The notes beneath the pieces were generated by a model. It saw only the letters and a program-made list of their open reading frames with translations. It made no database searches and was not told the origin of the DNA. Position numbers and translations under genes: made by a program. Shown piece by piece: positions 16,109 to 62,560 of a stretch of 64,000 bases of DNA (positions within the stretch are counted from its first letter, which is position 1; each line of letters starts with the position of its first letter). The DNA comes from a bacterium. GTDB taxonomy: Bacteria; Patescibacteriota; Dojkabacteria; SC72. The stretch lies in contig JAJTYH010000003.1 of the NCBI GenBank assembly GCA_021463465.1, forward strand, positions 147,549 through 211,548, in the 5' to 3' direction.

Positions 16109-16109
16109 G

Positions 16110-21801: not shown

Positions 21802-21857
21802 ATAATAAGGGTGAATATATTATAGGGTGTTATTTTACTACTTTAAGTGGCAAAAAT

Positions 21858-23751: not shown

Positions 23752-24127
23752 ACTGTTGTTTATAGGTATCCTTGTAACTGCGGTTATTACATCTGGACTC
23801 TTTGCTTACTATTTCGTTTATTTACCGAATAAAACTACTAGTAATGTAGGGGGGTGTAGTCCTACTAAATTCCGCCAGGAAAAGAATGGAGAAGAGTACT
23901 TTCTCTTTTGGACAACTCTTGATGAATGCACAGGATATGTCAAATATGGCAATACAGCGGAAGCCTTTCCTTATCTGGCAGTCGATCAGCAGGGAGTGGT
24001 CAAAGTCAGGGAGCATGAAGTAAAACTCTCAGGAATAACCAAAGGCAGCACGTACTATTTTGTAATCTTTTCGAACGAGAAAAGTTTTGGGAATGAAGGC
24101 AGACCTCTAATCCTTAGTTTCGAATAG
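23738..24127 (+). CDS. Small TM-anchored protein with an FN3/purple-acid-phosphatase-N-like domain
   Basis: TM anchor, then 'YFLFWTTLDECTGYVKYG...HEVKLSGITKGSTYYFVIFS'. The same W-T-[DT] / H-x-V / Y-x-F pattern occurs at the N-termini of the 1150-aa and 612-aa proteins further downstream. Confidence 0.4.
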   Translation: MKTNKLLFIGILVTAVITSGLFAYYFVYLPNKTTSNVGGCSPTKFRQEKNGEEYFLFWTTLDECTGYVKYGNTAEAFPYLAVDQQGVVKVREHEVKLSGITKGSTYYFVIFSNEKSFGNEGRPLILSFE

Positions 24128-25970
24128 TTTTATTCTTTTCTAGTTTCTCTATAAACTTCTCTTCGAAGTATCTCTGTGGATCATTTGATTTGAGACCAAT
24201 ATTTCTTACAGTCTTTCCAAGAGTTGAATTGATTAGCTTATTGCTCACATTTAATCCGCTTTGTGAGAAGTAGAAGAAGAGTCCAAGTAATATGGTGAAT
24301 ACCGCGAGTGCTACTCGTGAAATAGTACTGTCAAATAATGCTGTCTCAGGTGAAGTACAGTTTTGAGACACTGAAACAGAGACACTACTTCTTAGGCTAT
24401 CATCATCTTTTGGTGTATTTACTGGGATTGCAATAGCCTCATTTAGGTTACTGCCTGATAGAGCCGAGGAACTAACATTAGCGCTGAAACGTATTGTAAG
24501 GCTATCTCCCGAATCTATTGTCCAACCTCCATTAGTTGAAAAGGTAATTTGCTGAGTACTTCCAACAGTTTCTACATCAATAAAATCGCTATCATCGACC
24601 AATGAACCGTTAATATAAGTAGAATTGGTCTTGTAAGTAAATCCTAACGGCAGTTTATCTTCTATACGTGTAACTCCTTCATCATCTGAATCGGTATTTT
24701 GAATTGAGATTGTGTAAGTGAGTGAGTTACTACGTTCAACACAAGCGACCGAAGCGGTTTTATCTAGTGTGAAATCAGAAGTTTCTGTTTCTTCGTTTGG
24801 TTTTTCCTCTTGAGGGTTAGTTGGCTCCTCTTCTTCTGGTTCTTCTTCGTTAGGCTCCTCAGGTGTCTCTTCTACAGGATTCTTTGGCCCTTCTTGTATA
24901 GCTGGAATCTCAAATTCTCCAATACAGTTATCTGAATTAATCAAACTACCATCGACATATACTTGCGAAGAAATATTGAGGGTACCCATTTCATCATCGA
25001 TGACTGAGAACGATTTTCCGTCAATGAAATTGGAAGCAGAGTATAGGAAGGATTTGGTAAGGACTAGAGATGAACCCGACATTTGAGACTTAATGTTCTT
25101 AGTAGTTAAAGTCTCGCCAGTTTTACCCACCGTAAACTTCACAGAGAGTGTATTAGTAGGGGTTACTGATGCCATACTTAGGTTGATTTCGTTAACTTTT
25201 GGTTTCTGATTAGTATCGTTGACAACTTCAGCTCTTAATTCAGTGCAAGTTGGAGCGTTAGGCTTGTTTACTGTCAATACGCGGTTACAAGCTTCTGAGG
25301 TAATCTGTGCACCAGTCGTTGATTGACCGAAGGCTTGAATGCTCAGGGTATCAGAAGTTGAATAATCTGGGATTGTTGTAGTGACAAGATATTCTTTGTC
25401 GACTCCGGTTCCACTAGATGTAGCTTGGTCCTTTTGCATTTCTGTCTTAGCGCCGTTAACTACAAATGAGAATCCAGAATAGAAGTCCTGGTCAGGGGTT
25501 GTAATGTTTTTTGGAGTAGTGAATTTGGCTTTGATTGTAAGTTTTTGTCCTGGTTCGACCTTATTGGCATATCGCTTCTGTGCGGTGTCTTCGATAGAAA
25601 TATCGACACATCCTGGGTTGATTGCAAAATCATCAACACGGCAGGCAAGGGTGGTTTGGTTCTCCTCCTTAAGGCTTGAGGCTGTTCTTAGGTCACAGCT
25701 TGCCGAACAATTGTTGTTGCCTTGTATTGTACCTGTCTGGAATTCATAGGCCATCTTAGGATTAGCATCAGCACAGCTTTTGACTGTGTCAGTAGCTGCT
25801 ACAAAATAACAACCACAACCTTGCGATGCATTGGTATTTTGAGGTGAAATATCGTTGATTTTAAGATAGAAATATCCGGTTATCAAACTGGCTACCGCAA
25901 GTACTGCTGTAAATACCAATATAAGCGTTACTGTTTTTTTTGTACGTTTAGCTGCTGCTAAAGGATCCAT
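24114..25970 (-). CDS. Surface protein with a DUF11 ('conserved repeat') domain, an acidic linker and a C-terminal SPETAL-TM-basic tail
   Basis: N-terminal signal anchor. Acidic linker 'EETPEEPNEEEPEEEEPTNPQEEKPNEE'. The DUF11-like segment 'DKLPLGFTY' matches the D.LP.GL.FV signature. C-terminus 'SPETALFDSTISRVALAVFTILLGLFFYF' followed by Lys-rich residues. Confidence 0.5.
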   Translation of the reverse strand: MDPLAAAKRTKKTVTLILVFTAVLAVASLITGYFYLKINDISPQNTNASQGCGCYFVAATDTVKSCADANPKMAYEFQTGTIQGNNNCSASCDLRTASSLKEENQTTLACRVDDFAINPGCVDISIEDTAQKRYANKVEPGQKLTIKAKFTTPKNITTPDQDFYSGFSFVVNGAKTEMQKDQATSSGTGVDKEYLVTTTIPDYSTSDTLSIQAFGQSTTGAQITSEACNRVLTVNKPNAPTCTELRAEVVNDTNQKPKVNEINLSMASVTPTNTLSVKFTVGKTGETLTTKNIKSQMSGSSLVLTKSFLYSASNFIDGKSFSVIDDEMGTLNISSQVYVDGSLINSDNCIGEFEIPAIQEGPKNPVEETPEEPNEEEPEEEEPTNPQEEKPNEETETSDFTLDKTASVACVERSNSLTYTISIQNTDSDDEGVTRIEDKLPLGFTYKTNSTYINGSLVDDSDFIDVETVGSTQQITFSTNGGWTIDSGDSLTIRFSANVSSSALSGSNLNEAIAIPVNTPKDDDSLRSSVSVSVSQNCTSPETALFDSTISRVALAVFTILLGLFFYFSQSGLNVSNKLINSTLGKTVRNIGLKSNDPQRYFEEKFIEKLEKNKTIRN

Positions 25971-48648: not shown

Positions 48649-51600
48649 ATGTTTAAAGTACAAGTTGGATGGGAAAACGTCAGAATTGTAGGGAGGTACT
48701 TTTTAGCCTTGCTATTACTCATTTCAATTGGTCTTATTGGTTACAAGGCGTATTATATGCTAACCAATGTCCCAAAAGAAGTTAGAGTTACGAATTTGAC
48801 AGGTACTTCTGCTACTGTTTCCTGGTATACAGACAAACCCGATAAGGGGATGGTACTTGTCAAAGAGAAAGACTCTTTTATCCCTTTGCTAAAGAAGTTC
48901 GGAGCTGTAATCGGTTATGATGACAGAGATTTGGCTTTCGCTAGAGCTTCCTTGGCGGATGAGATTACTAGGAAAGCTGCAGAGGGTTTGGATTCTAATG
49001 ATGATGCAACACTTCCCGATGGTTTCCTTGAATCGGTAAAGGTAACCAAAAAGGGTAAATACTATGTACATCATGTAACCGTGTCAGGACTAAAAGAAGA
49101 TACGAACTATTCGTTCAGAGTTGGTAATGGCCTTATCTTTTGGAATTTAAATCAGAAGAGACAGGAAACGCAAGAGTTTGAGGTTAGAGCTGTTGATAAG
49201 TTCTCTTTTAAAACGTTGCTAGAGCTAGAAGAGGTACCCACCCCGAATCCTGCTTATGGGAAATTGTACTCCTTGGCGAGGGATAAAGATGGCTACTTGA
49301 TGTCAAATCCTTCCACAGATGCAATACTGTTTTCGCTTGCAATTAAAAAAAACTCAGACGAGACGTCACTACCACTCTCAAGCGTTACAAATAAAGATGG
49401 TGGATGGTTAATTGAGAAGACTGCTTTCAGAGATAGTAGTGGCAACGTTTTAGAGGGTATGAAAGACGGCGAGGATACGTTACGCATAGTGGGGCAGTTT
49501 GAGAACCTCTCTCCAAGTGAAGCGAAGGATTTAACATGGGGAGTAAATGACTCTCCTGCAGATGCAATTTATGGAAATAGCGATGAAGAAGCTAAAGTTA
49601 GAGGTAGCTTATTGGATAAAGTTAAATTTAGCTTAAGTGATTCGTTTAAAAGCCGTACTAATAACCTAACCCTGAACGCTTTTAAGGTAAATGCAGGAGT
49701 TGATAAGCCAAGTGATTGTGATCCCAATAAAGAAGTGTGGAATTCAACGAAAAAAAGGTGTGACCCTAAATCGGCTGTGACTGGGGGCACTGATTCTAAT
49801 GGTTGTGATTTGGATTCTGAGTATTGGAACGAAGAGAAAGAAACATGTTTAGCTAAACCTGTAACTCCACCAATAGTAGTTCCACCCGTTGGTGGCATTG
49901 ATAAGCCAAGTGATTGTGATCCCAAAGAAGAAGTATGGAATAAAAATAAAAAAGTGTGCGACCCTATTGAAGATGATTCAGGGTCTACCCCACCAGCAGT
50001 TACGCCCCCGACAGTGAACCCTCAAAATGCGGATGGACCAGAAGATTGCGCTGCTATTGCTGGATCAGAATGGAATGCTCAGCAACAAGCTTGTATTAAA
50101 ACAGACAAAAAGGATAAGTATGATAAATGTACTGGCAGATTCGCCAGGACTTGTGATGAGGAACCTCTTGGGGGTAATTCAACAAACTGTTATTGTTCAA
50201 TTGGTGGAGGAGAATACCTCCCTCTTCGAGGTGTTGATTGTAGACCAGCCGCTTGTGCAAATAAAAGGAATAATGATGTGGTATGCTCTGATGGTAAATG
50301 TGAATCAAGGGTTAAAATTGACGCAAAAGGAAACGAAGTCCTGTGTGGTAGTGATTATACAACCCCTGGTTGTGGTTTTCCTGGAGATGGGAAGTGTCCT
50401 GAAGCTACGCCATATTACAATAGCGCGACAAATGCTTGCCAAACTAGCGCTCCTTCTTCTCAGCCTGAGATAACGGTAGGGGGCGAGCCTTCGGATTTGA
50501 TTCTTTGTGTATACAAAATTAATGGTAGTAGTGTAAAAGCTAGGAAAACTAAAGCTGAATGTGATGCTTTGAATGGGAGTAATGGTAGTGGTACTGTTCG
50601 ATGTGGTTTCGGTCAAAGACCTGATGGTAAAGGTGGATGTGAATGTCACCCTGCCTTCGTAGGAAATGCAAATAGTCCTGGAGGTTGTCAGATGCCTGGT
50701 AGAACTGATCAAGAGCTTAAAGATAAGAGATGTGTAGATATGGAAGGTAGGGCGCTATCGTGCGGTAGTGTAAGATATTTTGATGAACAAACTGGCCGTT
50801 ACGAAACTGTGAATTGTGGGAAGAATGGAAGTGTATCTTGTAATAGTTCGAATGAAGAGTGTATTCAAACGTTTAGGGAAAGTGCTCAGGCAGTTGCAGG
50901 TGTGTGTTCTCCCAAAGGTATTGCTGTAGGTATTTTATCGAATTACGATGGGAATAATAAAGGTCTGGTGGAGTTTGGAAATGACTGTTATCTTAAAATT
51001 GATTCAAAAGGTCAAGTCATTGATAGAACAGTTCTCACCACTCATTATAATATTGAATATCAACGGAAGATTGAACAATCAAAAGATTGGGTACAAGTAC
51101 CAATGAAATACTGTACTTCAGGACCAGTAAAGGAAGACTATCCTGGTGATATCGGAAGTAGCCTCAATAATGATGGGAAAAACAACTTTACATTACTAGG
51201 TGAGGTTAGTGCTGCTGACGAAATTGCAGTAACAAATAATACAAATTACATGATTGTTTTCCCTGAAAGTGGTAAATACAACGTTAATATAGGTGGAAGT
51301 AAATTTGAAAACATAACTGTAAATGCTGACAATGATTACTTCTTCTTTGATGACCGTAATGGAGTGAAAGGGTATCAAAGTCCTTCTGATTTGAACAATC
51401 CAAAACCAAATGAAGACTTAATGCTCTCTGTGCTAGGTGCTAAGGTTACCTTAAGTACAACTACAAAAAATCAGTCTCTGAAACTAAGTAAAGGAATGAA
51501 TATGATTTCATTTAACTACCTACCGTCTTCAAGTGAGAAAGAGTCTTTGAAGGCTTCTGAGTTTTTAGATATATCTAATAGCTCAGGACTTAAAGTTAGC

Positions 51601-52101
51601 AAGATAACATATTTTGAAGGTGGAAAATGGGTTGGCGGTATGTCAGCTATTTCTGGGGATAAAAAAGTTAAGGCTGGAAACGATTTTGCTCTAGTCCCCG
51701 GCAAAGGCTACTTGATTATTTCTTTGAAGGATACAACCGTCCAAGTTCCTGGATTTAGTATTAAAAACTCTGTACCAGTAGCACTTTCTTCTGGTTGGAA
51801 TTTAATAGGTATAAACGGATATCAAAAAACCTTCACCGCTAACTCTTTAATTGATTCAGTAAATGGTCTGTCGGGGCTAAAAGCTGATAACGTAACTTGG
51901 TGGCCTACATCTAAAGGTCGTTACGAATCTTTCCAGAAATCTGAAGGGGTTGAATATGGTTTCGATTTCCCAATTCTTAAAAATATGGGATACTTTGTTA
52001 GGTTGAGTGACTTTGAGCCGAAGGATTCATCTGCCAAGTCTGTTCTCTGGAATCCAGGAAGTTCGTCGCACGGCAAAGCTGGTTCGACCAAGGCCAATTA
52101 A
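48649..52101 (+). CDS. Giant (1150 aa) Cys-rich surface protein: N-terminal TM anchor, FN3-like domain, repeated CDP-containing modules, C-terminal beta-rich region
   Basis: TM 'YFLALLLLISIGLIGY'. FN3-like 'VRVTNLTGTSATVSWYTDKP...YYVHHVTVSGLKEDTNYSFRVG'. Two copies of 'IDKPSDCDPxxEVWNxxKKxCDP'. About 50 Cys residues in total. Confidence 0.55.
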   Translation: MFKVQVGWENVRIVGRYFLALLLLISIGLIGYKAYYMLTNVPKEVRVTNLTGTSATVSWYTDKPDKGMVLVKEKDSFIPLLKKFGAVIGYDDRDLAFARASLADEITRKAAEGLDSNDDATLPDGFLESVKVTKKGKYYVHHVTVSGLKEDTNYSFRVGNGLIFWNLNQKRQETQEFEVRAVDKFSFKTLLELEEVPTPNPAYGKLYSLARDKDGYLMSNPSTDAILFSLAIKKNSDETSLPLSSVTNKDGGWLIEKTAFRDSSGNVLEGMKDGEDTLRIVGQFENLSPSEAKDLTWGVNDSPADAIYGNSDEEAKVRGSLLDKVKFSLSDSFKSRTNNLTLNAFKVNAGVDKPSDCDPNKEVWNSTKKRCDPKSAVTGGTDSNGCDLDSEYWNEEKETCLAKPVTPPIVVPPVGGIDKPSDCDPKEEVWNKNKKVCDPIEDDSGSTPPAVTPPTVNPQNADGPEDCAAIAGSEWNAQQQACIKTDKKDKYDKCTGRFARTCDEEPLGGNSTNCYCSIGGGEYLPLRGVDCRPAACANKRNNDVVCSDGKCESRVKIDAKGNEVLCGSDYTTPGCGFPGDGKCPEATPYYNSATNACQTSAPSSQPEITVGGEPSDLILCVYKINGSSVKARKTKAECDALNGSNGSGTVRCGFGQRPDGKGGCECHPAFVGNANSPGGCQMPGRTDQELKDKRCVDMEGRALSCGSVRYFDEQTGRYETVNCGKNGSVSCNSSNEECIQTFRESAQAVAGVCSPKGIAVGILSNYDGNNKGLVEFGNDCYLKIDSKGQVIDRTVLTTHYNIEYQRKIEQSKDWVQVPMKYCTSGPVKEDYPGDIGSSLNNDGKNNFTLLGEVSAADEIAVTNNTNYMIVFPESGKYNVNIGGSKFENITVNADNDYFFFDDRNGVKGYQSPSDLNNPKPNEDLMLSVLGAKVTLSTTTKNQSLKLSKGMNMISFNYLPSSSEKESLKASEFLDISNSSGLKVSKITYFEGGKWVGGMSAISGDKKVKAGNDFALVPGKGYLIISLKDTTVQVPGFSIKNSVPVALSSGWNLIGINGYQKTFTANSLIDSVNGLSGLKADNVTWWPTSKGRYESFQKSEGVEYGFDFPILKNMGYFVRLSDFEPKDSSAKSVLWNPGSSSHGKAGSTKAN
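49691..49958 (+). repeat. Intragenic direct repeat, two copies of about 70 nt spaced 198 nt apart. The 27-nt core TTGATAAGCCAAGTGATTGTGATCCCA is identical at 49700-49726 and 49898-49924.
   Basis: Read directly from the sequence. The repeat encodes the duplicated 'DKPSDCDP' module. Confidence 0.6.
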
Positions 52102-52117
52102 TTTGAGGTAAAAAAAT

Positions 52118-52420
52118 ATGAGTGAAATACCAACATGGTACTGGATGACAATAATCGGTTTCTTAAGCGTGCTTTTGGGCATGATTTTGTACTACGTAGC
52201 AATGCTGGTTAAAGAGACAACTGCTACAATGTCTGAAGTGAGAGCAACTCTAGTTGATTCCAGAAAACTTGTTCAAAATGCCAATCAAATCGTGGAGGAT
52301 GTTCAAGAAACTGTGAGTAATGTTAAACACACGATTAATCAAGTGAATGAAGCTGTCCTCGAACCTGTCAAACAGGTGGGTGATACAGTCCGCTCACTTC
52401 TTGGTATGTTCAAAGGTTGA
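52118..52420 (+). CDS. Small membrane protein, DUF948-like (TM followed by a coiled-coil)
   Basis: 'WYWMTIIGFLSVLLGMILYYVAMLV', then a heptad-like polar region. This architecture resembles the DUF948/YtxG family. Confidence 0.35.
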   Translation: MSEIPTWYWMTIIGFLSVLLGMILYYVAMLVKETTATMSEVRATLVDSRKLVQNANQIVEDVQETVSNVKHTINQVNEAVLEPVKQVGDTVRSLLGMFKG

Positions 52421-52424
52421 AGCT

Positions 52425-52562
52425 CTATTTAAGCTGATTTCCGAAGTAGATTAGTAGTATGGATATTGCTGTTGCTGCGATAAGGATTGCAAGTGGTTCT
52501 AGGTAGTATCTCATCCGAACTGGAACATTAAACACTAATTCTTTTTCAGCTGGTTTTTCCAT
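52425..52562 (-). CDS. Possible unannotated 45-aa single-TM protein (MEKPAEKELVFNVPVRMRYYLEPLAILIAATAISILLIYFGNQLK)
   Basis: An ORF found by hand in the 196-nt gap. 'AGGAT' lies 8 nt upstream of the ATG. It is below the size cutoff of the ORF track. Confidence 0.2.
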   Translation of the reverse strand: MEKPAEKELVFNVPVRMRYYLEPLAILIAATAISILLIYFGNQLK

Positions 52563-52616
52563 CTTAATATCCTACAAATGTTTGTATAACTAATCAAGAT
52601 TAGTTATATTATTACC

Positions 52617-54455
52617 ATGTATGTGACTCCCCGACAAAGAAGAAGATACTTCTGGACCAGTATAATTTTGATACTTGGGTTACCTATAACTGCATTTGCA
52701 ACTGTAATGGCAATAAGGTACTTCACAGGAGCCTCAGGGAGCGATACACCACAAAACGTAGTAATTTCCAATCTTACTTCAAATTCAGTTTCCATCTCAT
52801 GGAGTACAGACTCAAAAGCTACAGGGGCGATAACAACGAATGCTGGAAAAGGAGATAGCACCCCCTTTGTTGATATTAGAGGCACGGATCGCCGCAAAAC
52901 TCATCATGTTGATATTGTAGACTTAGATCCATCAAAAGATTATAACTTCGTTATTCTTTCAAATAATCAAAGATACTCAGATGAAGAGGGTAAAACCTTT
53001 AAATTTCGCACTTCTCCCGTGACATCTCAAACCCCTGTTCCTTCACCTGTATATGGATTGATAGAAGGGGATAACAAGGAGGATGTATTAGTTTATGTAA
53101 CCCTGAATGGAAGGTCTAGTGTATATCCTGCTTCATCTGCAGCTACTGGCTCTGGAAAGTGGATTATTGATTTATCAGCGCTCCGTGACCCAAGCTCAAA
53201 TGAACTTATCAAGGTTGATGACAATACTGAAATCACTGTTACGGCAAAGGGAACCGATACTTTAGGGGGAACACTTTCAGGTACATATGGTGAGCTTGTT
53301 GATGACGAGGGGCAAATGTTTACCCCTCTACAATTAAGTGATGTGCCTCTTGATTCGCTTTTTGCTGCAATTCCAAGGTCGGCTCAGATTGCGTTGGTAG
53401 CCCAGTCTTCTAACCCTCCGCCTAAAGATAATCCTCCTGCCAACGAAGAACCTGAAGAAGAGGAGCCCGAGGAGGAAGAGCAACTTCCAGGGGGAGAGAT
53501 AGCATGGGGTGTTATCCCAGGTACCAATACTTCAAGTGGTGGTAGCAGTGCAGTTACTGGTGCTGATTCGGTACAAATAACTAATATAACTGATTCTGGA
53601 TTTACCGTTGTATGGTTAAGTGGAACTGCTTCTGAGGGTTCCGTAAATTACGGGACAACAGTGTCTGATCTTGGAGAGAATGCTCTTGATGAAAGAGATA
53701 GTGCTGTTAGTAAAGGTGCATACACAGCGCATAGTGTGAAGCTGTTAAGACTTTCACCTGAAACTAAATATTTCTTTGAGATAAAGGATGGGAACTCAAT
53801 TATTAATGATGGAGGAAAAGCCTTCACAGCAACAACTTTTAAAACCTTGGAAACCCCCCCTGAATTCAAAACGGTTGCGGGCAAGTTTACGGGTCCATCT
53901 GATCCTTCAGATGCGGTGGTTGTTGTCGGGGTAAGCGATGAAGATGATTCAGGAAGTAGTGGAAGCTCTAGTTTGAGTTCAACAATTCCTGATGATGGCG
54001 GTAGTTGGGTCATCACCTTGGGAGATTTGCGAGACAGCTCAGGCGCAGAGTACTTCACTTTCAGTGATGATGATACTGTTGAAGCTAATGTTCTTTCAAT
54101 TTCTAGAGGAGAAACAGAAAGCGCGAAAGTCAAGGATGTTATAGATGCTGGAATTAATTTGACTGCTTCCGCAGGAGCAAAGCGTCGGATAGTTAAAGTG
54201 TCAGCTTTGGCTAGTTACGGTATTACTATTGGCAACTTAGCTTCTGTAAACTTGGGTGCAGGTGGAGGTGGGGGAAGTAGTGAGTTAAATGTTACTGGAT
54301 CAACTACCCCCGAAACAGCCTTATCTACGCCTTTAATAGTTACACTTGTAATTGGAATGATTACCTTTTTAGTTGGAGTTTTTACATATATCAAGTCACA
54401 AGCTCGGTATAGGGTAAAAGAGAGTAAAAGTCATATGGTTTCTAGTGTTATTTAG
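52617..54455 (+). CDS. Surface protein (612 aa): N-terminal TM, FN3/PAP-N-like domain, acidic linker, C-terminal TPETAL-TM-basic tail
   Basis: 'VVISNLTSNSVSISWSTDSKATG...HHVDIVDLDPSKDYNFVI'. Linker 'PANEEPEEEEPEEEEQLPG'. C-terminus 'TTPETALSTPLIVTLVIGMITFLVGVFTYIKSQARYRVKESK'. Confidence 0.5.
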   Translation: MYVTPRQRRRYFWTSIILILGLPITAFATVMAIRYFTGASGSDTPQNVVISNLTSNSVSISWSTDSKATGAITTNAGKGDSTPFVDIRGTDRRKTHHVDIVDLDPSKDYNFVILSNNQRYSDEEGKTFKFRTSPVTSQTPVPSPVYGLIEGDNKEDVLVYVTLNGRSSVYPASSAATGSGKWIIDLSALRDPSSNELIKVDDNTEITVTAKGTDTLGGTLSGTYGELVDDEGQMFTPLQLSDVPLDSLFAAIPRSAQIALVAQSSNPPPKDNPPANEEPEEEEPEEEEQLPGGEIAWGVIPGTNTSSGGSSAVTGADSVQITNITDSGFTVVWLSGTASEGSVNYGTTVSDLGENALDERDSAVSKGAYTAHSVKLLRLSPETKYFFEIKDGNSIINDGGKAFTATTFKTLETPPEFKTVAGKFTGPSDPSDAVVVVGVSDEDDSGSSGSSSLSSTIPDDGGSWVITLGDLRDSSGAEYFTFSDDDTVEANVLSISRGETESAKVKDVIDAGINLTASAGAKRRIVKVSALASYGITIGNLASVNLGAGGGGGSSELNVTGSTTPETALSTPLIVTLVIGMITFLVGVFTYIKSQARYRVKESKSHMVSSVI

Positions 54456-54479
54456 TAGTATTTTGTTGTACAATCCAAA

Positions 54480-55847
54480 ATGAATATGGATCGTAATGAC
54501 AAATACAAGCGCTATTCAGGATTGATGCTGTTTTTATTGCTTATTGTCGGAATTTCATCCGCTATAATTGTTCCGCATTTTAACTTTGTTTCTAAGGCTC
54601 AGGGATTGTCGCAGGATTTAGCTCAAACTCCTCCGGTTACATCTGTTGAAAGCATTGAGACAGGAGAGGTGCAAGCGGCAACAACTGAAGAACAAAAAGC
54701 AAGTAAAGGGTTTGGTAAATGTATGAATGGGAGTGTATGTGATTATGTTCAAGAATTAACTTATCAACCTGTCTGTTCAATTAACGATGCAGGTGGAAGT
54801 ATGACTGGTGGAGATGCTAATGAAGGTAAGAAGTTTGTCTCAGTAAGAATGAATGCTAAGGTCGAGCCTTTTATAATAACGGTTCCTCAGGTACTACTGC
54901 AAGGGAGTAAATATGTAGAAGATGATCGTAAATTAATAAGTAAAGATTATCCTGTATATCGCGACTCACAGCACGTAATTCTCGATGATGAAGCTAGGAG
55001 AACATGTGCACCAGGTGTTGATTGCGCGGATTATGATGAGCTTTCAAAGCGTCCTGATGTACCTTTTTCGCTTCACGCTTTTATGGAGGTTAAGAATGCT
55101 GATGAAGGGGGATTTGGAGGTGATGGGAAAGCAGTAATTTACTCTTTAGATTCATTGAGATCTGCTTGTCCGAAAGTCCAAAAGGCAAAGGCCAACCCTA
55201 AAAAAGCAGGCTTTTATGCTGCTAAATTGGATGTTAAGCATCAGGCACCAGGGGTGCATGAAACCTGGAGAGATTTTGGAGGAGTGGAATGTTACAGAAC
55301 TAACCCAAATGGAATGCATTTACAGGAAGCAAAGAACTTTGTGAGCTGCGTTACAGAGGTTAAGCCGACAGATTTTGTTGTCAGCGCTGTATATAATATT
55401 GCCCAGTGGCTTGAGTGCTTAGATGGTGGGGCGGAATGCGAAGAGTATAGAGTTTTTGCAATTAGGTTAGACGCAATGTTTGGAGGCGTATTTAAATGCG
55501 CTGGTGTTGATTGCGAGATTCGTTTCTTTGATTTTGAGAAACTAAAGACCACCGCACCTGGTGATGCTCAGGAGATGATTCCTGATTATATAGATAAGTC
55601 TTTAGTTAATCCGATTCGTCCAGTTACTGAGCCTTATTACCTTACAACTCCATGTAAAATTAGGATTAATAAATGGGGGATTCATAATGTACCTTGTCTT
55701 TGGGATATCTCTCCATATCAGAGGCATTATGAAGTACAAAGATCTGCGTTAATGCCTTTAGAGCCTACGATGCCATTGACATTTGATGACTATTGGAATA
55801 ATGGGGTTGCTCCAGAGCTTAAAAAAAGATCACTATCATGTGTATAA
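54480..55847 (+). CDS. Secreted or TM-anchored Cys-rich protein (455 aa)
   Basis: TM 'LMLFLLLIVGISSAIIV', then a domain with more than 20 Cys residues. Confidence 0.45.
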   Translation: MNMDRNDKYKRYSGLMLFLLLIVGISSAIIVPHFNFVSKAQGLSQDLAQTPPVTSVESIETGEVQAATTEEQKASKGFGKCMNGSVCDYVQELTYQPVCSINDAGGSMTGGDANEGKKFVSVRMNAKVEPFIITVPQVLLQGSKYVEDDRKLISKDYPVYRDSQHVILDDEARRTCAPGVDCADYDELSKRPDVPFSLHAFMEVKNADEGGFGGDGKAVIYSLDSLRSACPKVQKAKANPKKAGFYAAKLDVKHQAPGVHETWRDFGGVECYRTNPNGMHLQEAKNFVSCVTEVKPTDFVVSAVYNIAQWLECLDGGAECEEYRVFAIRLDAMFGGVFKCAGVDCEIRFFDFEKLKTTAPGDAQEMIPDYIDKSLVNPIRPVTEPYYLTTPCKIRINKWGIHNVPCLWDISPYQRHYEVQRSALMPLEPTMPLTFDDYWNNGVAPELKKRSLSCV

Positions 55848-55875
55848 TACATAACTTAAATTTTATTTAACCGGT

Positions 55876-57306
55876 ATGTTAGTAGAAATTGCAAAATTTA
55901 TTAAAAAGGTAAGTAGCGAGCGAAAATGGGTAAACTATTTAGCTGGAATCCTTACAGTATTCATGTTCTTTAGTGTAATGAATATCTATGCTCAAGAAGC
56001 GGGTGCAACTATTAAGCTCGACCCAGTGGAAGGGTATAGAGCTGAAACGGCACTTACTAAAAATGGTACAGGTGATACGTCGTATAACAGTCAGACAACT
56101 ACAATGAACGTTATATTAGGAGCTCTAAATGGAGCACTGCAGAATATGGCTCCACAGTTGCTTAGTAACTTTGCAGCAATAGAGTCTGATCCGGCTGTTC
56201 CTGCATATGCAAAGATGGGTGCATTAGGTTTAGCTGGCGAAGGGGTTAATGCAATGATGAATAACTATAACGGCGTAAACATAGTTAATTATATGGCAAG
56301 CGAATGGGTACCCGGGTATGATAAATCTACAAGTGTTTATGCCGCTACAGATGGTTATAGTTATTTAGATGAGAGCAATGTTGATGTGTTGTGGGATAGA
56401 ATAAGGCTCATCACTTACGTGCTTTTCGTTGTTGTTTTAATAGTTGCTGGCTTTATGATTATGTTTCGACAGAAAATCGGTGGGCAACTTGCTGTTAGTA
56501 TCTTTAATACTCTTCCAAATGTAATCGTTGCACTAATACTAGTTACCTTCAGTTTCGCTATTGTAGGGCTAATGCTTAATGTGGGCGTTATGATAATCAA
56601 CGTGATGACATCGGTATTAGGTGTTGCTGACCCACTCACCATTGAGAATCCATTTAGTCTGTTTGGAACTGCTATGAATGGAGAGCTGTTGGGTGGTGGG
56701 ACGACAGCTGCTTTAGTTATTGGGCCGGCAATAATTGCAGGGTTAATTGCTGCAGTTACAGCTACAGGTGGTGCGGCTCTTCCTGCGGTTGTTGCTGCGA
56801 CTGTAACCGTAATAGTAATTGCAGTTATTCTTACGGCAATAGTTATTTATGCTTCAATTCGTGTTTACATAACCCTATTGATTGCATATTTAGGGATTAT
56901 AATAAATACAGTTATGGCGCCTATATTTTTAGCCATCTCTGCCTTCCCTGGTCAAAGTGGTATGGCATCAGATTGGTTCAGAAGAGTTTTAAAAGCCGTT
57001 CTAACTTTTCCAATTGTCTATTTTTTCTTAAACCTTGGTATGTTTATAATCAATGGAGATATTAATCTTGGTTTCCCGTCAGGAATAATGAGTGGGGATT
57101 TCACCCAGGTTGACACTAATGGAAGCCCAGTTGGAGGATTTATAAAAGCAGTATTAGTATTGTTACTCTTTTTCTTTGCTGCTGATGCACCTAAGATTTT
57201 GGATGACTTCTTACCATCTAATGAAGGTAAGGGTGTTGGTAGTGCAATTGAAGGTGCGAAGAAAGGTCTGTCCAAGATTCCTGTTGTTGGTTCCCTATTG
57301 GGTTAA
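55876..57306 (+). CDS. Polytopic membrane protein, VirB6/TrbL-like: signal peptide, extracytoplasmic domain of about 150 aa, then 5-6 TM helices
   Basis: 'LAGILTVFMFFSVMNIYAQEAGA' signal. The later TM helices are rich in Gly/Ala/Ile/Val ('TAALVIGPAIIAGLIAAVTATGGAALPAVVAATVTVIVIAVILTAIVIYA'). Confidence 0.45.
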   Translation: MLVEIAKFIKKVSSERKWVNYLAGILTVFMFFSVMNIYAQEAGATIKLDPVEGYRAETALTKNGTGDTSYNSQTTTMNVILGALNGALQNMAPQLLSNFAAIESDPAVPAYAKMGALGLAGEGVNAMMNNYNGVNIVNYMASEWVPGYDKSTSVYAATDGYSYLDESNVDVLWDRIRLITYVLFVVVLIVAGFMIMFRQKIGGQLAVSIFNTLPNVIVALILVTFSFAIVGLMLNVGVMIINVMTSVLGVADPLTIENPFSLFGTAMNGELLGGGTTAALVIGPAIIAGLIAAVTATGGAALPAVVAATVTVIVIAVILTAIVIYASIRVYITLLIAYLGIIINTVMAPIFLAISAFPGQSGMASDWFRRVLKAVLTFPIVYFFLNLGMFIINGDINLGFPSGIMSGDFTQVDTNGSPVGGFIKAVLVLLLFFFAADAPKILDDFLPSNEGKGVGSAIEGAKKGLSKIPVVGSLLG

Positions 57307-57321
57307 TGGAGCAATAATTAA

Positions 57322-60303
57322 ATGGCGAAGTCAAGAAAACCAAAAGGATTTTCAGATCCACTTGATTCCATATTTGGCTTTATTTTTACTGGCGCTAAAT
57401 CTAAACCAGTAAAGACAAGGCCAACAAGATTTACAGGGGTTAATGCAACCGAGATGTTAAGCCAAGGACTTGCTGAAATTGCAAGTAAACCTGCTAACTA
57501 TGTTAGTTCTGCTCTCATGGAACCCGTTAACCAGTTGGCAAATGGGGTGAAGATTTCAGAGTTTCATCTAGATCGATTTGATGACTCGTTGCTAAAGAAT
57601 CTTGATAACTCAGCAGGTCGTTTTAGAATCCGAGGTGGGGATTTAGCTAAGTTCATGAAGGACCCAAATAAATTTGTTGACTCGGTTTTTCAAGGTGCGG
57701 CTGAGGAACGTAAATGGGCTAGGTATCTTAATATTGGACGAGGGATGGATACCGCGCTGCTCACGGCCTGGGCGAAGAAACAAGGTTTTAGCTCTAAAGA
57801 TGCATTGCAAATAGGTTTGGCAACAAGTAATTTTTTGGGTCCTGACCAAACGCTTGAAGCTAAAAAGAAACAAGCTCAGAACTCAGTTCTAAGATATCTT
57901 GATAGTAGGAGTGGTACATCTAAAGTATCTAAAACGATTTCCAGTCAGACACTTGAAGCATTAGAAAAATATAAAGGAGCTGGGTTTAGGAGTGAGGCAG
58001 AGCTTGAAAAAGTTTTACGTACTGTCCCTGGACTTGCCACTAGAAGTGATTTCTCAACGATAGTTACTGAGATTTTTGATGGCTATGCTGACGAAGCTTA
58101 TGGTAAGAAGGATGCAACTACGGGAGAGAGAAAAGGCGGTAAATGGAATAGTATAGGTGGTGGCTGGTTAACGGATGGCAAATTAAACCGCAATGGTTAC
58201 ATCTCAGTTTTGAATGATAACTATTTACAAAGAGCGAGCCTACTTGATGCGACTGATCCACATCAAGCTCTAGAACAAAGACGGTTGTTGGCGGCAAGGC
58301 AGTCATTATCAACGCTTTTAAGGCTTAAGGGCCCCAGTTTTAATCCGATTGAGGCAAGTGCAACTTTTGGTAGCCAAATCGATAGTATTAATAAAGAAAT
58401 TGAAAAAATGAAAGCTAGGGCTGGAACAGCGGGATTAAACGCCAGACAAAAGATTTACGCATCAAATTTAGAAGGCATTGCAAAACAGATTGAAGCAGCA
58501 ATTGCTGAAGGAGATAAGGCTGCGCAAAGAAAAATGCAACGTAGATGGTTTGGTTTTCAACCTGTTGGTGATTTTTCTGCCTATAGGAAAGCTATGGTTG
58601 CGGATGTTGATTTAGAGATCGAGAGGGCTGGTTGGCAGGCGATATCCCCAGGTCTTTCAGCGTCCAAAAAGGAATACTACAAGAATCTTATAGCATCTTT
58701 AATGCAAAGAAAGAAAGAGTTGAGATCTGCTCCTCTCAGAGATTGGCGAATAATAATTGCTGATACTGTTGGGGCATATAGGTCTATAGATGGAAATATT
58801 AGACAGGGAGGATTAGCTGGTGGAATAATTTCTGGATCGATTTTTACAAATGATTACTTTAGTCCAGCACAAGGTCAAAAGTTTATTGTCAAAAGATTTG
58901 AGAAATCAACATTTGGAAAAGTATGGGAAAACGAAGTTCCAGTAATGAGGGGTGATATTAATCAGAATTATGCATCAATGACAAGCTTGTATTATTTTAC
59001 ACCTGGATCACTTGCCAAAACATTCTTTTTTAATGGTGAAGGTTTTTCTAGATTGCTATTAAGGCAAAGAGTTAATAATCTTAACTCTATTTTGACTCCT
59101 TCTGCATTAAGTAGTCTTAATGGCTTTTTAAACGCATCACCTTCACTCCTAGCTTCGTTAACAAGTGCTGGTTGGGCAAAAGGAGGGAAAGTCAATTTAG
59201 ATGTAGGCTCACTTGTTTACGATTTACCTGGCTTTATGAGCGCCGTTGAGAAAGGTGGAGGTGCTAAAGCACTAGGTCCATTATGGGGGCAACTTACTAA
59301 GGTCTATAATACTGATCAAAACGGTCCAGTGGCTCAAGCACTTCGATTTTTTGGGACACCTCAGAGGAACTTAGTTAAAGTTGCTACATGGTATGAGGCA
59401 ACATTTCGAAAACCTTTCGGCCAATTTTTACATACAAAGGTATACCCTAAAATTTTAGGTAGGAAGTTTGCGGAAAAGATTGCCCTTACAGGGAGTATTA
59501 AAGCCGCTATTTCAGCCATTGTTACTGATGCCTTGGTTGCGTTGGGTGTATCAATTGGTGGACCAATTGGTGCTGTAGCTGCATTTATAGTGACTTTTGT
59601 AGTTGAGGATGTTTTATTAAAAATAGCTAAACCATTAGTTAAACTTTTTTTCCTCGTTTTATGGTCTACGGTATTAGTTATAGTAGCCTTTATAGGTTTT
59701 GTTCTTATAATTTGGCCATCGACTTACCCACTCCCTCAGCAGCATAAACCACCCCTTGATGCGATGGCATGTGGTGGTGGAAACCCTTTTAGTGGTCTTT
59801 ATAATTTCCAAACCGTCCAAGCAAGCAATATCCCAGATGCGCCACCAGGTTCAACATGCCCTATTCTTAGCCCATCAATGTTATGTTCTCAAGGCTCGGG
59901 CCCAGGTTCTTCAAGCTATCACTCTGCAAGGCAAAGTTTGGATATAAGTGCCAGAGGTTTAGCTGATACTGTTTGGTATGCGCCTACCAACGGTACTGTA
60001 GTATCATTTTCTGCGAGAAATATATGTAATGACGGCGCTGACTATGGAGGAGCACTAGTATTTAGAGATAGTGCCGGCACCACATATACTCTTTTACATG
60101 TAAAGGCACTTGCTTCGGGTCCTGTAAGTAAAGGTAAACCAGTAGCAATAATTCAAACGGATTTAATACCTAGTGATTGTTGGACGGGTCCGCACTTCCA
60201 CCTTGACGTACAGACTGGAGGAGGGTTTGTAAATACAGAGACTTGGTATAGGGAGAAGTTAAAATGTAATATCACTAAGGCTGCACCGAGCTGTAATGGA
60301 TAA
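57322..60303 (+). CDS. Giant (993 aa) protein: hydrophilic N-terminal region of about 700 aa, 2-3 TM helices, C-terminal M23/LytM metallopeptidase domain
   Basis: TM segments 'AAISAIVTDALVALGVSIGGPIGAVAAFIVTFVV' and 'FFLVLWSTVLVIVAFIGFVLIIW'. The C-terminal domain carries 'HSARQSLD' (HxxxD), 'GGALVFRDSAGTTYTLLHVKAL' and 'GPHFHLDVQ' (HxH), the M23 zinc-ligand pattern. Confidence 0.6.
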   Translation: MAKSRKPKGFSDPLDSIFGFIFTGAKSKPVKTRPTRFTGVNATEMLSQGLAEIASKPANYVSSALMEPVNQLANGVKISEFHLDRFDDSLLKNLDNSAGRFRIRGGDLAKFMKDPNKFVDSVFQGAAEERKWARYLNIGRGMDTALLTAWAKKQGFSSKDALQIGLATSNFLGPDQTLEAKKKQAQNSVLRYLDSRSGTSKVSKTISSQTLEALEKYKGAGFRSEAELEKVLRTVPGLATRSDFSTIVTEIFDGYADEAYGKKDATTGERKGGKWNSIGGGWLTDGKLNRNGYISVLNDNYLQRASLLDATDPHQALEQRRLLAARQSLSTLLRLKGPSFNPIEASATFGSQIDSINKEIEKMKARAGTAGLNARQKIYASNLEGIAKQIEAAIAEGDKAAQRKMQRRWFGFQPVGDFSAYRKAMVADVDLEIERAGWQAISPGLSASKKEYYKNLIASLMQRKKELRSAPLRDWRIIIADTVGAYRSIDGNIRQGGLAGGIISGSIFTNDYFSPAQGQKFIVKRFEKSTFGKVWENEVPVMRGDINQNYASMTSLYYFTPGSLAKTFFFNGEGFSRLLLRQRVNNLNSILTPSALSSLNGFLNASPSLLASLTSAGWAKGGKVNLDVGSLVYDLPGFMSAVEKGGGAKALGPLWGQLTKVYNTDQNGPVAQALRFFGTPQRNLVKVATWYEATFRKPFGQFLHTKVYPKILGRKFAEKIALTGSIKAAISAIVTDALVALGVSIGGPIGAVAAFIVTFVVEDVLLKIAKPLVKLFFLVLWSTVLVIVAFIGFVLIIWPSTYPLPQQHKPPLDAMACGGGNPFSGLYNFQTVQASNIPDAPPGSTCPILSPSMLCSQGSGPGSSSYHSARQSLDISARGLADTVWYAPTNGTVVSFSARNICNDGADYGGALVFRDSAGTTYTLLHVKALASGPVSKGKPVAIIQTDLIPSDCWTGPHFHLDVQTGGGFVNTETWYREKLKCNITKAAPSCNG

Positions 60304-61345
60304 ACTATTTGAGTTTGTAAAAAACAATAAACAAATTACGATTATTACTGGTGGGATTCTAGTGCTAATTGTACTTGTAATATTTACAATTCTACCTGAA
60401 GGGACTAAAGGTGGTGTTGCGTTAATAGAACAACCACTCTACTTCTATAAATCTAAAAGGATAAGTATACCCGTCAAACTTGCCCAAGATACGAAGGTGA
60501 ACACCAAGCCTTGGAATATTTACCGTATTAAAAATGATAATCAGAATATAAAGGTTGAAGGTATAATAACCAAACTAAATATTGATAATCCTTCTAAAAA
60601 GGTAAGCGGGGGTATCTTGTATGAATGGAGTAATAAGGATGGAGATTTGGTTCAGTACGATGTTAAAACTCAAACAATGAGTTTAGTAATGCAAAATAGG
60701 ATAGAGGTTTTTCCTGAGTTAGGAGTTGCAAGTGATTCTCAGCTAATGGGGCTTTTGACCGATTTTATCCATAAATATGTTGATAACTCGTATGAGTATA
60801 AAGAAGTAAATGTAGTGAAGTTAGGAAATGGATATAAGATTGAAGGTAGAAGATTGGTTAATGGTGTGGCGCTCCAGACTCCTGGTTTAAGCAAGTATCA
60901 TGATTATATTGAGTTAGATAATCAATACAACTTGAAATTAGCGAGGGTTGTGCTAGTTGAACTTGAGAGTGAAATTGCTGATAAAATAAAACTTATTAAA
61001 CCGAATGAACTTGGGAGCGTAGTCTCAAGAGACGCCTATCCAAAGGAATTTAATCAAGACTTCCCGCAAGGATTGGATATTGATAAGGGTAAAAGTGATG
61101 ATTCAAATCAGGACAATCTGGGAGTAGAGATCCCAAAGGTTAGCAATATTACTGTTGAGTCTATGGAAGTTGTATATCTATTTAGTAATGTGGATCAGCA
61201 GTTTCTTGTTCCAGTTTATAGGCTAGAAGGCAAAAGCAGAGTGGTAATTGCTGGGAGGGAGTTTGAACTTAACAGTGTTGTACATGCAAGTGCAATTGAT
61301 CCTGACCATGTATATATACCCTCTAATATACCTTTCGCTCCTTAA
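60296..61345 (+). CDS. TM-anchored extracytoplasmic protein (349 aa), possibly VirB8-like
   Basis: TM 'ITIITGGILVLIVLVIFTIL', then a soluble domain of about 310 aa. It overlaps the upstream gene by 8 nt. Confidence 0.4.
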   Translation: MDKLFEFVKNNKQITIITGGILVLIVLVIFTILPEGTKGGVALIEQPLYFYKSKRISIPVKLAQDTKVNTKPWNIYRIKNDNQNIKVEGIITKLNIDNPSKKVSGGILYEWSNKDGDLVQYDVKTQTMSLVMQNRIEVFPELGVASDSQLMGLLTDFIHKYVDNSYEYKEVNVVKLGNGYKIEGRRLVNGVALQTPGLSKYHDYIELDNQYNLKLARVVLVELESEIADKIKLIKPNELGSVVSRDAYPKEFNQDFPQGLDIDKGKSDDSNQDNLGVEIPKVSNITVESMEVVYLFSNVDQQFLVPVYRLEGKSRVVIAGREFELNSVVHASAIDPDHVYIPSNIPFAP

Positions 61346-61372
61346 GGTATACAAAGTTTTACAAATACTGCT

Positions 61373-62560
61373 ATGATTATCAGTATGAAAAAATTGTTGT
61401 TGGCTATACTATTTTCTTTAATGTTGACTTTAGCTTTTGAGCAGGTGAGTAAGGCGTATACTTTAAGAAGTAGGGAGGAAATGGGGTTTGATGAGAGTAT
61501 TGCAGATCAAAGCCAGACCACAATCGCAGCTCCTTCGAAAATTTTTATTACTCGGGTACTAACTGCCAACGAGGAATATGAGGCTCAAACTGAAATATGG
61601 GTTAAATCATTATATTACTACTCAATTACCCGTTTAGGTTTTCTTGACTTACCATACACCTATTTAGTTGATCGGGATGGTAAGGTTTATGAAGGGAGAG
61701 CTGGTGGTATTTATACTGATCCGGAGACAGTACAAACAGGTGGGCAATTGGTAATAGGTTATCTTTCAAATAGCGAGGATGTAACGGCTTTAGCTAGTCA
61801 ATCCCTACGTCAATTGATTACAGAGATTTCGTATACATACGGTGTGACAAGGTCTGAAGTCCAGATAGGGAAATTAGATATTGCAGAAGGAGGAGAGGTA
61901 GCTAAGACTATTCTCTTAACTGATGGAAGCAGCTTTACTTCAGAGATTGAAACACTGCTTAACAGCTTTACCTATTCCGAAGTAGAGCACATTAAATATC
62001 GTGCTGCGGTTAAATCAGTTACATACGCCAAAACGGTAGAAGCTTCAGAAAAGTTTACTGTTGAAGCTACTCTTATAAATACGAATGATTTCCCCTGGTT
62101 TACTAACAACAATTATATTTATGTTTCTACTCGTAATAAACAAGAATCCCCTTTTGCAGTTAACGGAGTGTGGGATAGCTTTAGTAAACCGGTGGCAATT
62201 ACAGATAAGGTGGTTTTGCCAGGAAAGGAGTTGGTGGTAACCTTTGATATGCAGGCTATGTTACTGCCTGGCAAATACACTGCACGCTTCAATTTGATGA
62301 AGCTTCCTAATGTTCAATTCGCTGGGTCCAACTTTGATGTTGCTTTTGAGATTAAAAAAGGTAGTGCAAAGCTGGTGAGAATCATTGGAATACCATCCTT
62401 GAATGTCCGTGAGTGTATCGGTTCCAATTGTAAGGTTCTTACACAGGTTGCCGAAAATCAGGTGCTTATAATGTTAGAGAAGAATGCGGGTTGGTACAAA
62501 ATTAGATATTCCGAAAAAGCGTCCGGATGGGTGTACGGACAGTACGTTGAGCAGTTATAA
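61373..62560 (+). CDS. Secreted cell-wall-binding protein: amidase_2/PGRP-like domain plus C-terminal SH3b domain
   Basis: Signal peptide. 'PYTYLVDRDGKVYEGRAGGIYTDPE...QLVIGYLSNSED' resembles the N-acetylmuramoyl-L-alanine amidase_2 core. C-terminal 'LNVRECIGSNCKVLTQVAENQVLIMLEKNAGWYKIRYSEKASGWVYGQYV' is an SH3b-type domain. Confidence 0.5.
   Translation: MIISMKKLLLAILFSLMLTLAFEQVSKAYTLRSREEMGFDESIADQSQTTIAAPSKIFITRVLTANEEYEAQTEIWVKSLYYYSITRLGFLDLPYTYLVDRDGKVYEGRAGGIYTDPETVQTGGQLVIGYLSNSEDVTALASQSLRQLITEISYTYGVTRSEVQIGKLDIAEGGEVAKTILLTDGSSFTSEIETLLNSFTYSEVEHIKYRAAVKSVTYAKTVEASEKFTVEATLINTNDFPWFTNNNYIYVSTRNKQESPFAVNGVWDSFSKPVAITDKVVLPGKELVVTFDMQAMLLPGKYTARFNLMKLPNVQFAGSNFDVAFEIKKGSAKLVRIIGIPSLNVRECIGSNCKVLTQVAENQVLIMLEKNAGWYKIRYSEKASGWVYGQYVEQL

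Follow-up and report, generated by a model that had tools for sequence, protein, structure and literature searches.

Our analysis suggests that a gene in a 64,000-nucleotide stretch of a Dojkabacteria genome (contig JAJTYH010000003.1, positions 147,549 to 211,548 of the forward strand; hereafter the window) codes for a 993-residue integral membrane peptidoglycan endopeptidase. We propose, with somewhat less than an even chance of being right, that the dedicated task of this protein is to open the wall for an envelope apparatus that is specific to Dojkabacteria and resembles a type IV secretion system (T4SS). The C-terminal part of the protein has the fold of the M23/LytM peptidases, and it is joined through a hydrophobic block to a large helical domain that would lie in the cytoplasm. 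The bacterium itself is an ultra-small monoderm from the candidate phyla radiation, and it has genes for sortase and LCP as well as an IF-2 and an AlaRS that are both short. The listing of open reading frames (ORFs) confirms a 993-codon ORF at 57322-60303 on the plus strand, and the gene and its parts are as follows.

57322-60303 (+): whole gene, from the ORF listing; 993-residue membrane protein (NCBI label 'hypothetical protein IT417_01790'; exact database match P0001)
57322-57423 (+): conserved basic N-terminal peptide, residues 1-34, MAKSRKPKGFxDPLDSIFGFIF..AKSKPV..RP, predicted to be disordered (AlphaFold2 confidence score, pLDDT, <50)
57322-59499 (+): all-alpha N-terminal domain, residues 1-726, putatively cytoplasmic; no known family, Walker motif or Cys
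59500-59724 (+): hydrophobic block, residues 727-801, with segments 727-745, 746-765 and 777-801 and a conserved K767/P771/K774 loop
59725-59847 (+): Pro-rich, low-confidence linker from the membrane to the peptidase domain, residues 802-842 (pLDDT <50 at 811-834)
59848-60300 (+): variant M23/LytM peptidase domain, residues 843-993, with six conserved Cys (846, 855, 902, 953, 982, 991)
59920-59943 (+): H-x6-D, presumed first two zinc ligands on grounds of conservation, from H867 (59920-59922) to D874 (59941-59943)
60097-60099 (+): H926, which corresponds to the catalytic His of the 'YaHl' motif of M23 peptidases; the same in all of 50 sequences and aligned with the 9gy1 His
60193-60201 (+): H958-F-H960, the HxH motif in CWTGPHFHL, invariant and aligned to TGPHLHFE of 9gy1 and ShyA

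The C-terminal ~150 residues have the M23/LytM fold, and this assignment is solid because the profile of the orthologous domains, the PF01551 matches in relatives, the hhalign comparison and the AlphaFold2 model searched with Foldseek all agree. A profile of 31 orthologous C-terminal domains, built without those family members that have canonical M23 sequences, matched 32 PDB chains, every one of them M23/LytM; StM23 (9gy1, E 9.5e-8) and LysTt72 (1.5e-6) came first, followed by ShyA, LytM, phi29 gp13 and LasA. With a 50-sequence profile the match to solved M23 structures reached E 1.7e-13, and the variant domains aligned with the orthologues that carry canonical M23 at a probability of 97.8% (hhalign, E 9.6e-13). 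Individual matches to PF01551 were obtained for 25 of 50 diverse family members (E<=0.01; best 2.5e-34). The AlphaFold2 model of the full protein, computed from the 50-sequence alignment, has a mean pLDDT of 84 and a predicted template modelling score (pTM) of 0.69, with pLDDT ~85-97 over residues 845-990. Its top Foldseek matches in the PDB are M23 structures (probability 1.0), with template modelling (TM) scores, normalised to the target, of 0.70 for StM23, 0.68 for the EnvC LytM domain and 0.63 for EnpA. For the 993-residue protein itself, PF01551 is the sole Pfam family matched, at 18.5 bits (E 0.0023) over the last 128 residues (866-993) and at 13.5 bits over the whole protein, against a gathering score of 28.7 bits; SLT, CHAP and NlpC domains gave no match in this Pfam search. 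The initial annotation, made by reading the letters, had placed a C-terminal M23 domain here from 59917 (residue 866) onwards. The fold and the catalytic residues stand, on the profile and Foldseek evidence; the Pfam threshold is not reached, the literal HxxxD is missing, and the true start lies ~20 residues earlier, with the motif C846-x8-C855-[ST]-Q-G, at about residue 843 (nucleotide 59848). Some relatives already bear the NCBI/JGI labels 'M23 family metallopeptidase' or 'MepM/NlpD', and the catalytic domain itself is therefore not new.

Residues 866-993 (59917-60303) contain H867, D874, H926 and H958-F-H960. Judged by alignment, D874, H926, H958 and H960 are the zinc-binding and catalytic residues of the characterised M23 enzymes, kept in this protein: all four are invariant in 50 diverse sequences, and D874 aligns to the canonical M23 Asp when the profile is compared with solved structures. 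The 'HFH' first read as the HxH motif has accordingly held up as H958-F-H960, and a single one of 119 relatives (P0021) has HFD in its place. The string 'HSARQSLD', first read as HxxxD, is in fact H867-x6-D874, and the canonical HxxxD is absent. Across the family the His-to-Asp spacing is 6, 8 or 9 residues, with the canonical 3 in a few orthologues and ~15 in one. H867 is, like D874, invariant among close orthologues, and this conservation makes it the likely third zinc ligand. We tried to map it onto the canonical ligand His by profile alignment and failed, as the alignments begin downstream of the His-Asp segment. Zinc binding and peptidoglycan endopeptidase activity are predicted properties of the domain. 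With its H-x6-9-D spacing, CWTGxHxH signature and three disulfides, it defines a distinct M23 variant that current Pfam thresholds miss.

Would such a domain still be an enzyme? It might instead be a non-catalytic LytM scaffold like EnvC, NlpD, SpoIIQ or the LytM module of PrgK, with a role outside the membrane in protein-protein interaction or activation, for example of the neighbouring amidase. The missing HxxxD, a His-Asp region that cannot be aligned to canonical M23 and the sub-threshold Pfam score all speak for this, and a PGRP/amidase-type protein encoded two genes downstream echoes the EnvC-amidase pairing. Yet the residues that known degenerate LytM domains have lost (D874, H926, H958, H960) are all retained here without variation, the Asp has a conserved His 6-9 residues before it, M23A enzymes are active despite a long His-Asp spacing (PMC4356371), and orthologues put other catalytic hydrolase domains in the same place. 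We regard the scaffold explanation as very improbable.

Upstream of the peptidase domain, the transmembrane helices proposed in the initial annotation were recovered as hydrophobic helices at residues 727-801, and its large non-ATPase N-terminal region without recognisable motif was likewise found to have neither Walker A/B motifs nor a known family. AlphaFold2 places helices at 726-740 and 748-797, and K767, P771 and K774, between the second and third hydrophobic segments, are invariant. K/R-rich stretches precede the first segment and occupy the 766-776 loop. Among 110 relatives, the 20 residues before the hydrophobic block hold 2.8 K+R against 1.1 after it, and the Cys content rises from 0.04% before the block to 3.99% after it. 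Going by hydropathy, charge and Cys distribution, the 726-residue helical domain would reside in the cytoplasm and the three hydrophobic segments would cross the membrane. The model makes 748-797 one helix, and the number of passes, one or three, is therefore uncertain; either number would put the C-terminus outside if the N-terminus is inside. A location of the peptidase domain outside the cell is well supported, although inferred, because the 993-residue protein has no signal peptide and because the K+R bias and the Cys distribution both point that way. The linker that would separate the domain from the membrane has a median length of 42 residues across the family.

Residues 1-726 are modelled mostly at pLDDT 80-96 as an all-alpha domain with a few hairpins. 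No Pfam family was found in this region in any of 50 members, and Foldseek returned no reliable fold match for it in the PDB or BFVD. A likeness of residues ~258-452 to the Cry6Aa/ClyA-type toxins (E 5e-6 with the 50-sequence profile) was discarded as an artefact of coiled-coil composition: with a sub-alignment, designed helical proteins ranked higher and the Cry6Aa match split into three weak pieces. The first 34 residues (MAKSRKPKGFSDPLDSIFGFIFTGAKSKPVKTRP) are nearly invariant in close orthologues despite their predicted disorder, and could serve as a linear motif for docking or targeting. The N-terminal ~750 residues are nearly Cys-free family-wide; the cytoplasmic proteins of the window have 0.26-1.7% Cys.

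The order of a long helical region, a hydrophobic block and an M23 domain resembles that of phage proteins, and a domesticated tape-measure or ejection protein captured by the chromosome was therefore considered. Foldseek gave long alignments of low TM score to ~1000-residue cyanophage proteins annotated 'Peptidase M23' or putative endopeptidase and to the pre-ejectosome of cyanophage A4. These long matches have TM ~0.1 and a root-mean-square deviation of ~40 A, so that only the M23 part of the viral models is truly matched. The PHROGs matches of the protein also cover the M23 domain only, no neighbour is phage-like, a scan of 2.9 M viral contigs for the family motif came back empty, and the N-terminal domain is modelled, going by the pTM, as compact and not as an extended coil. 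With stable chromosomal synteny in addition, a phage origin is extremely improbable, and the tape-measure analogy of the initial annotation falls with it: the operon holds no phage families, viral contigs no relatives, and the surroundings of the gene are conserved on the chromosome.

A word-indexed database search found only three relatives of the protein, at 40-52% identity. An HMMER scan with the alignment of these three as query extended the family to at least 220 proteins at E<=1e-3, of which 103 reach E<=1e-30, mostly of 800-1100 residues and matching end to end; a homologue search with the 50-sequence alignment returned only the four close relatives. Named relatives of the gene and of its neighbour belong to Candidatus Dojkabacteria or candidate division WS6. 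The architecture is uncharacterised, and the family of the N-terminal domain is, as far as seen, confined to Dojkabacteria. This agrees with the first impression of an architecture not recognised in characterised proteins. In 50 of 50 members the N-terminal 720 residues lie outside every curated family. NCBIfam gave nothing on the protein or its neighbours, and an Rfam scan of the window gave nothing either. In one groundwater metagenome-assembled genome of Dojkabacteria (L012 10001-12941) the orthologue is broken into ORFs of 877 and 149 residues, through either a frameshift or an assembly error that removes the peptidase domain.

Orthologues at the same position between rsmE and uvrD differ in their C-terminal part: it may be canonical M23, the variant M23 combined with CHAP, Peptidase_C39_2, or a domain of unknown kind that contains Cys. 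The N-terminal domain and the transmembrane block thus serve as a conserved scaffold for wall-hydrolase domains that are swapped in place, and the exchange of hydrolases on one scaffold gives independent support for a wall-cleaving role. Examples of exchange were seen at L017 10001-13381, L020 10001-12820 and L018 10001-12694 and in the proteins P0060, P0105, P0136 and P0071. The Cys-containing domain, of the form 'NGGGYxF...RATET' and without assignment, occurs in ~20 representatives.

Rapid swapping of the hydrolase type in situ resembles what is seen in enzymes that match varied target walls. The M23 domain might then cut the wall of the host bacterium on which the epibiont lives, either from its anchored position where the two cells touch or once freed by proteolysis, and so open the host envelope to the exchange of nutrients or macromolecules. 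Patescibacteria are mostly obligate epibionts whose envelope machines are essential for epibiotic growth (PMC10633639), and adhesin-like proteins of FN3 type are encoded in the operon, which fits such an attack. The linker, however, is only ~40 residues long, and a tethered domain would therefore hardly reach past the cell's own wall. A cleavage site or release mechanism is not evident, and an immunity gene and a toxin-like context are absent from the surroundings. We consider attack on a host wall clearly unlikely.

The gene is the sixth of eight in a tight operon (48649-62560) between rsmE and uvrD, all the products of which are membrane-anchored or secreted. The other genes of the operon are as follows.

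48649-55847 (+): four upstream genes, coding for a 1150-residue Cys-rich FN3-type surface protein, a 100-residue transmembrane coiled-coil protein, a 612-residue FN3 protein with a transmembrane segment at each end, and a 455-residue Cys-rich anchored protein
55876-57306 (+): upstream partner, a 476-residue polytopic membrane protein; divergent VirB6-like candidate with a VirB2-like hairpin
60296-61345 (+): 349-residue N-terminally anchored protein of no known family, with a start that overlaps the M23 stop codon
61373-62560 (+): 395-residue secreted PGRP/Amidase_2-like protein with a C-terminal SH3b domain; last gene and second wall-targeting protein of the operon

Orthologues with as little as ~25% identity still show this gene order and these flanks, and a gene of ~480 codons directly precedes the hydrolase gene in every contig that reaches upstream. 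At 60296-60303 the ATG of the 349-residue protein shares nucleotides with the final codons and stop of the M23 gene (…TGTAATGGATAA…); the other intergenic gaps are of 16-29 nucleotides, with the exception of 196 nucleotides before the gene of the 612-residue protein. The ATG/stop overlap and the short gaps are consistent with translational coupling in one transcription unit. The proteins encoded at 48649-52101 and 52617-54455 on the plus strand are N-terminally anchored and have Ig-like domains of FN3 or purple-acid-phosphatase-N type, the 612-residue one with a C-terminal transmembrane segment as well, and it is possible that both are adhesins of the same apparatus. The first gene of the operon (1150-residue protein) is missing from some orthologous operons (L017, L019, L020). 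The operon products are either Cys-free (those of 612, 476, 349 and 100 residues) or Cys-rich (34 Cys in the 1150-residue protein and 15 in the 455-residue one, which has no relatives in the PDB). The 395-residue protein matches SH3_3 in Pfam at 1.8e-10, with only a weak amidase match there; the profile of its orthologues matches PGRP at 1e-5, T7 lysozyme at 3e-3 and SH3b at 1.8e-6, and a PHROG amidase family is matched at 3.4e-9. Its middle part is Ig-like.

The 476-residue partner has an N-terminal anchor, a helical ectodomain of ~140 residues and ~6 transmembrane segments, and it carries a conserved AGFMIMFRQKIGGQ...FSFAIVG motif. Its family counts 76 database members, every one labelled 'hypothetical' and lacking a precomputed Pfam domain, and a Pfam search of the ten most distant homologues gave nothing. 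When the partner was modelled from database homologues (pLDDT 76), the top five PDB matches in Foldseek were chains of R388 TrwI/VirB6 (probability 0.66-0.97, TM 0.28-0.42, E ~0.1). The matched chains have 260-272 residues and therefore fit the 342-residue VirB6 and not the 226-residue VirB5. By hhalign, the partner family aligns with six proteobacterial VirB6 proteins at a probability of 57% (E 1e-4) over 124 columns that include the conserved P...FF..W...N region, and 4 of 43 partner homologues show sub-threshold TrbC/VirB2-pilin matches over the first hydrophobic hairpin. In the T4SSs of monoderm bacteria, a membrane-anchored hydrolase is as a rule encoded beside a VirB6-like gene, as in the pairs PrgH/PrgK and ConG/CwlT.

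Elsewhere in the window there is a second locus with T4SS features.

13090-17075 (-): VirB4-like/PrgI-like locus, consisting of a VirB4-like ATPase (13090-15489), a 208-residue ORF (15482-16108) and a PrgI/VirB3-like protein (16110-17075)

The 799-residue ATPase matches PF19044 (TraG P-loop, 8e-29), AAA_10 and DUF87, the 321-residue PrgI/VirB3-like protein scores 26.8 bits for PrgI against a cutoff of 27, and the 208-residue ORF between them belongs to no family. The neighbours of the locus are recF and an ABC transporter; neither VirB6 nor a hydrolase is encoded next to it. Four ORFs of 147-185 residues at 20804-22963 on the minus strand and a 618-residue Cys-containing anchored protein at 24114-25970 on the same strand have no Pfam family, and no pilin features or pilin-like N-termini were seen in the small ORFs at 20.8-23 kb. 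The T4SSs of Patescibacteria are chromosomal and of monoderm type, derived from monoderm conjugation systems, and they are usually without a relaxase; VirB6 homologues are scarce, absent or hard to detect in some classes (Microgenomatia, Gracilibacteria), and VirB1-type hydrolases, which sometimes carry M23 domains, mostly do not lie near virB4 (PMC12102498). In the cultured member Southlakia the T4SS is essential for epibiotic growth (PMC10633639). We put the T4SS link of the operon at roughly even odds because the lines of evidence are each weak, but point the same way. The analogy with T4SS hydrolases in the initial annotation has thereby gained indirect support, from a gene that directly follows one for a VirB6-like protein and from VirB4-like and PrgI-like genes in the window; nothing points to a type VII secretion system, which it had named as well.

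We propose that the flexible linker of ~40 residues would hold the peptidase, stabilised by its disulfides, just outside the membrane, as hydropathy, charge and Cys suggest. So tethered, its cutting of peptide cross-links would be limited to the cell's own wall, near the place where the protein sits. The wall would be opened in this way for an apparatus made of the other operon products, probably a T4SS to judge from the context, with the VirB6-like channel protein, the anchored surface proteins and the PGRP-type amidase as its parts. More speculatively, the cytoplasmic domain and the N-terminal peptide might dock the hydrolase to a VirB6-like, VirB4 or VirB3-like platform, and docking might confine, and perhaps time, wall cleavage to the assembly site.

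Several observations weigh against this proposal. The peptidase domain, alone or within the whole protein, misses the Pfam gathering score for M23, and the His presumed to be the first ligand is conserved yet cannot be aligned to the canonical one. The number of membrane passes is uncertain, and the near-absence of Cys from a supposedly cytoplasmic domain has no explanation. The likeness of the partner to VirB6 is weak throughout, in Foldseek and hhalign as given above and in Pfam, where TrbL is insignificant. Within the operon there is neither a T4SS ATPase nor a pilin array, nor any other gene that can be recognised as part of a T4SS, and the VirB4-like locus lies 31 kb upstream with housekeeping genes between. 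The 349-residue neighbour was examined as a VirB8-like candidate and rejected: it has no relative in the PDB, and hhalign against TrwG gave 0.1%. No homology of the 993-residue protein to VirB1, TrsG or CD419 was detected.

Weak VirB6 evidence and an operon without an ATPase or a clear T4SS gene would suit a housekeeping autolysin, which would open the cell's own wall for growth or for the separation of daughter cells under cytoplasmic control, as FtsEX acts on EnvC, PcsB or RipC; the operon would then be a module for wall remodelling and the cell surface, apart from any T4SS. The second wall enzyme in the operon (PGRP/amidase-SH3b) fits this explanation too, and so does the fact that the gene is single-copy and, throughout the class, keeps a core-like chromosomal place between rsmE and uvrD, close to ribosomal genes. 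The T4SS of Patescibacteria is itself chromosomal and core-like (PMC12102498), and conserved synteny therefore cannot separate an autolysin from a T4SS hydrolase. Against an autolysin, there is no link to division genes, as ftsEX, ftsZ and the dcw cluster are not among the neighbours; the obligatory partner is polytopic and VirB6-like, not FtsX-like; and large anchored surface proteins dominate the operon. On balance, we find a housekeeping role rather unlikely. If the T4SS link is wrong, the protein would come down to an ordinary membrane-anchored autolysin, if one of odd construction, from a lineage that has been little studied.

If the proposed role in a T4SS-like apparatus is right, the missing T4SS parts of Dojkabacteria are encoded in a conserved second operon at a distance from virB4, with the 476-residue VirB6-like protein as candidate for the channel base and the 993-residue hydrolase as candidate for the wall-opening enzyme. 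A bolder version, quite improbable in our estimate, makes the protein a new kind of T4SS subunit, in which a Cys-free, class-specific cytoplasmic module of 720 residues with a docking peptide is fused across the membrane to a hydrolase, so that what happens at the cytoplasmic ATPase platform would directly control the cutting of peptidoglycan outside. The coupling protein has been reported as unrecognisable or mostly absent in the T4SSs of Patescibacteria, and the 720-residue module might therefore partly replace it. In its extreme form, the Cys-free N-terminal part may be threaded outward, in the manner of a tape measure, on contact with the host.

How does this protein compare with known systems? 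With the M23B enzymes (LytM, lysostaphin, StM23, ShyA/MepM, EnpA) the C-terminal domain shares the fold, the Asp, the catalytic His and the HxH motif. It differs from them in having H-x6-D (x6-x9 across the family) where they have H-x3-D, in three conserved Cys pairs, in the CWTGxHxH signature and in a C-terminal W-Y..L.C..x..C extension, and it is fused to a transmembrane block and a giant cytoplasmic domain. What sets M23A apart from M23B is the presence of disulfides, a His-Asp distance that is longer and varies, and an additional segment at the C-terminus (PMC4356371). All three of these traits are seen in our domain, although it scores nearer to M23B in sequence and fold (LasA only at E 0.01), and its spacing of 6-9 is intermediate, whereas that of M23A is 'several times longer'. 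The M23A enzymes LasA and beta-lytic protease are moreover secreted soluble proteases with propeptides and not membrane proteins.

In the tape-measure protein Pb2 of phage T5, a helical region, hydrophobic segments and an M23 domain follow each other, and the internal protein of cyanophage A4 (9k2v_E) has the same order of a long helical region, a hydrophobic part and M23. Outside M23 these phage proteins show no sequence likeness or reliable fold likeness to our protein, which has an N-terminal domain predicted to be compact and is coded by a vertically inherited chromosomal gene. In FtsEX-EnvC/PcsB and in SpoIIQ, as proposed here, a membrane complex with a cytoplasmic component organises an extracytoplasmic LytM fold. 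There, however, the LytM domain is catalytically dead, the parts are separate polypeptides and, in the FtsEX type, an ABC ATPase exerts the control, whereas the Dojkabacteria protein has intact residues, fused domains and no ATPase motif.

The closest parallels are the wall hydrolases of monoderm conjugative T4SSs, a functional class termed 'VirB1-like': PrgK (pCF10), TraG (pIP501), CwlT (ICEBs1) and TcpG (pCW3). Like the protein described here, they are anchored in the membrane with the hydrolase outside (a topology that in our case is inferred), they are encoded beside a VirB6-like gene (here a candidate), and their catalytic domains are modular and exchangeable, CHAP being found in some of our orthologues as well. 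PrgK even includes a LytM module, which is degenerate. The monoderm enzymes differ in the place of their genes, the operon studied here being separated from virB4, and their active domains are SLT, CHAP or NlpC-P60. They also have a short cytoplasmic N-terminus, whereas the Dojkabacteria protein joins an apparently catalytic M23 domain to a novel helical domain of 726 residues.

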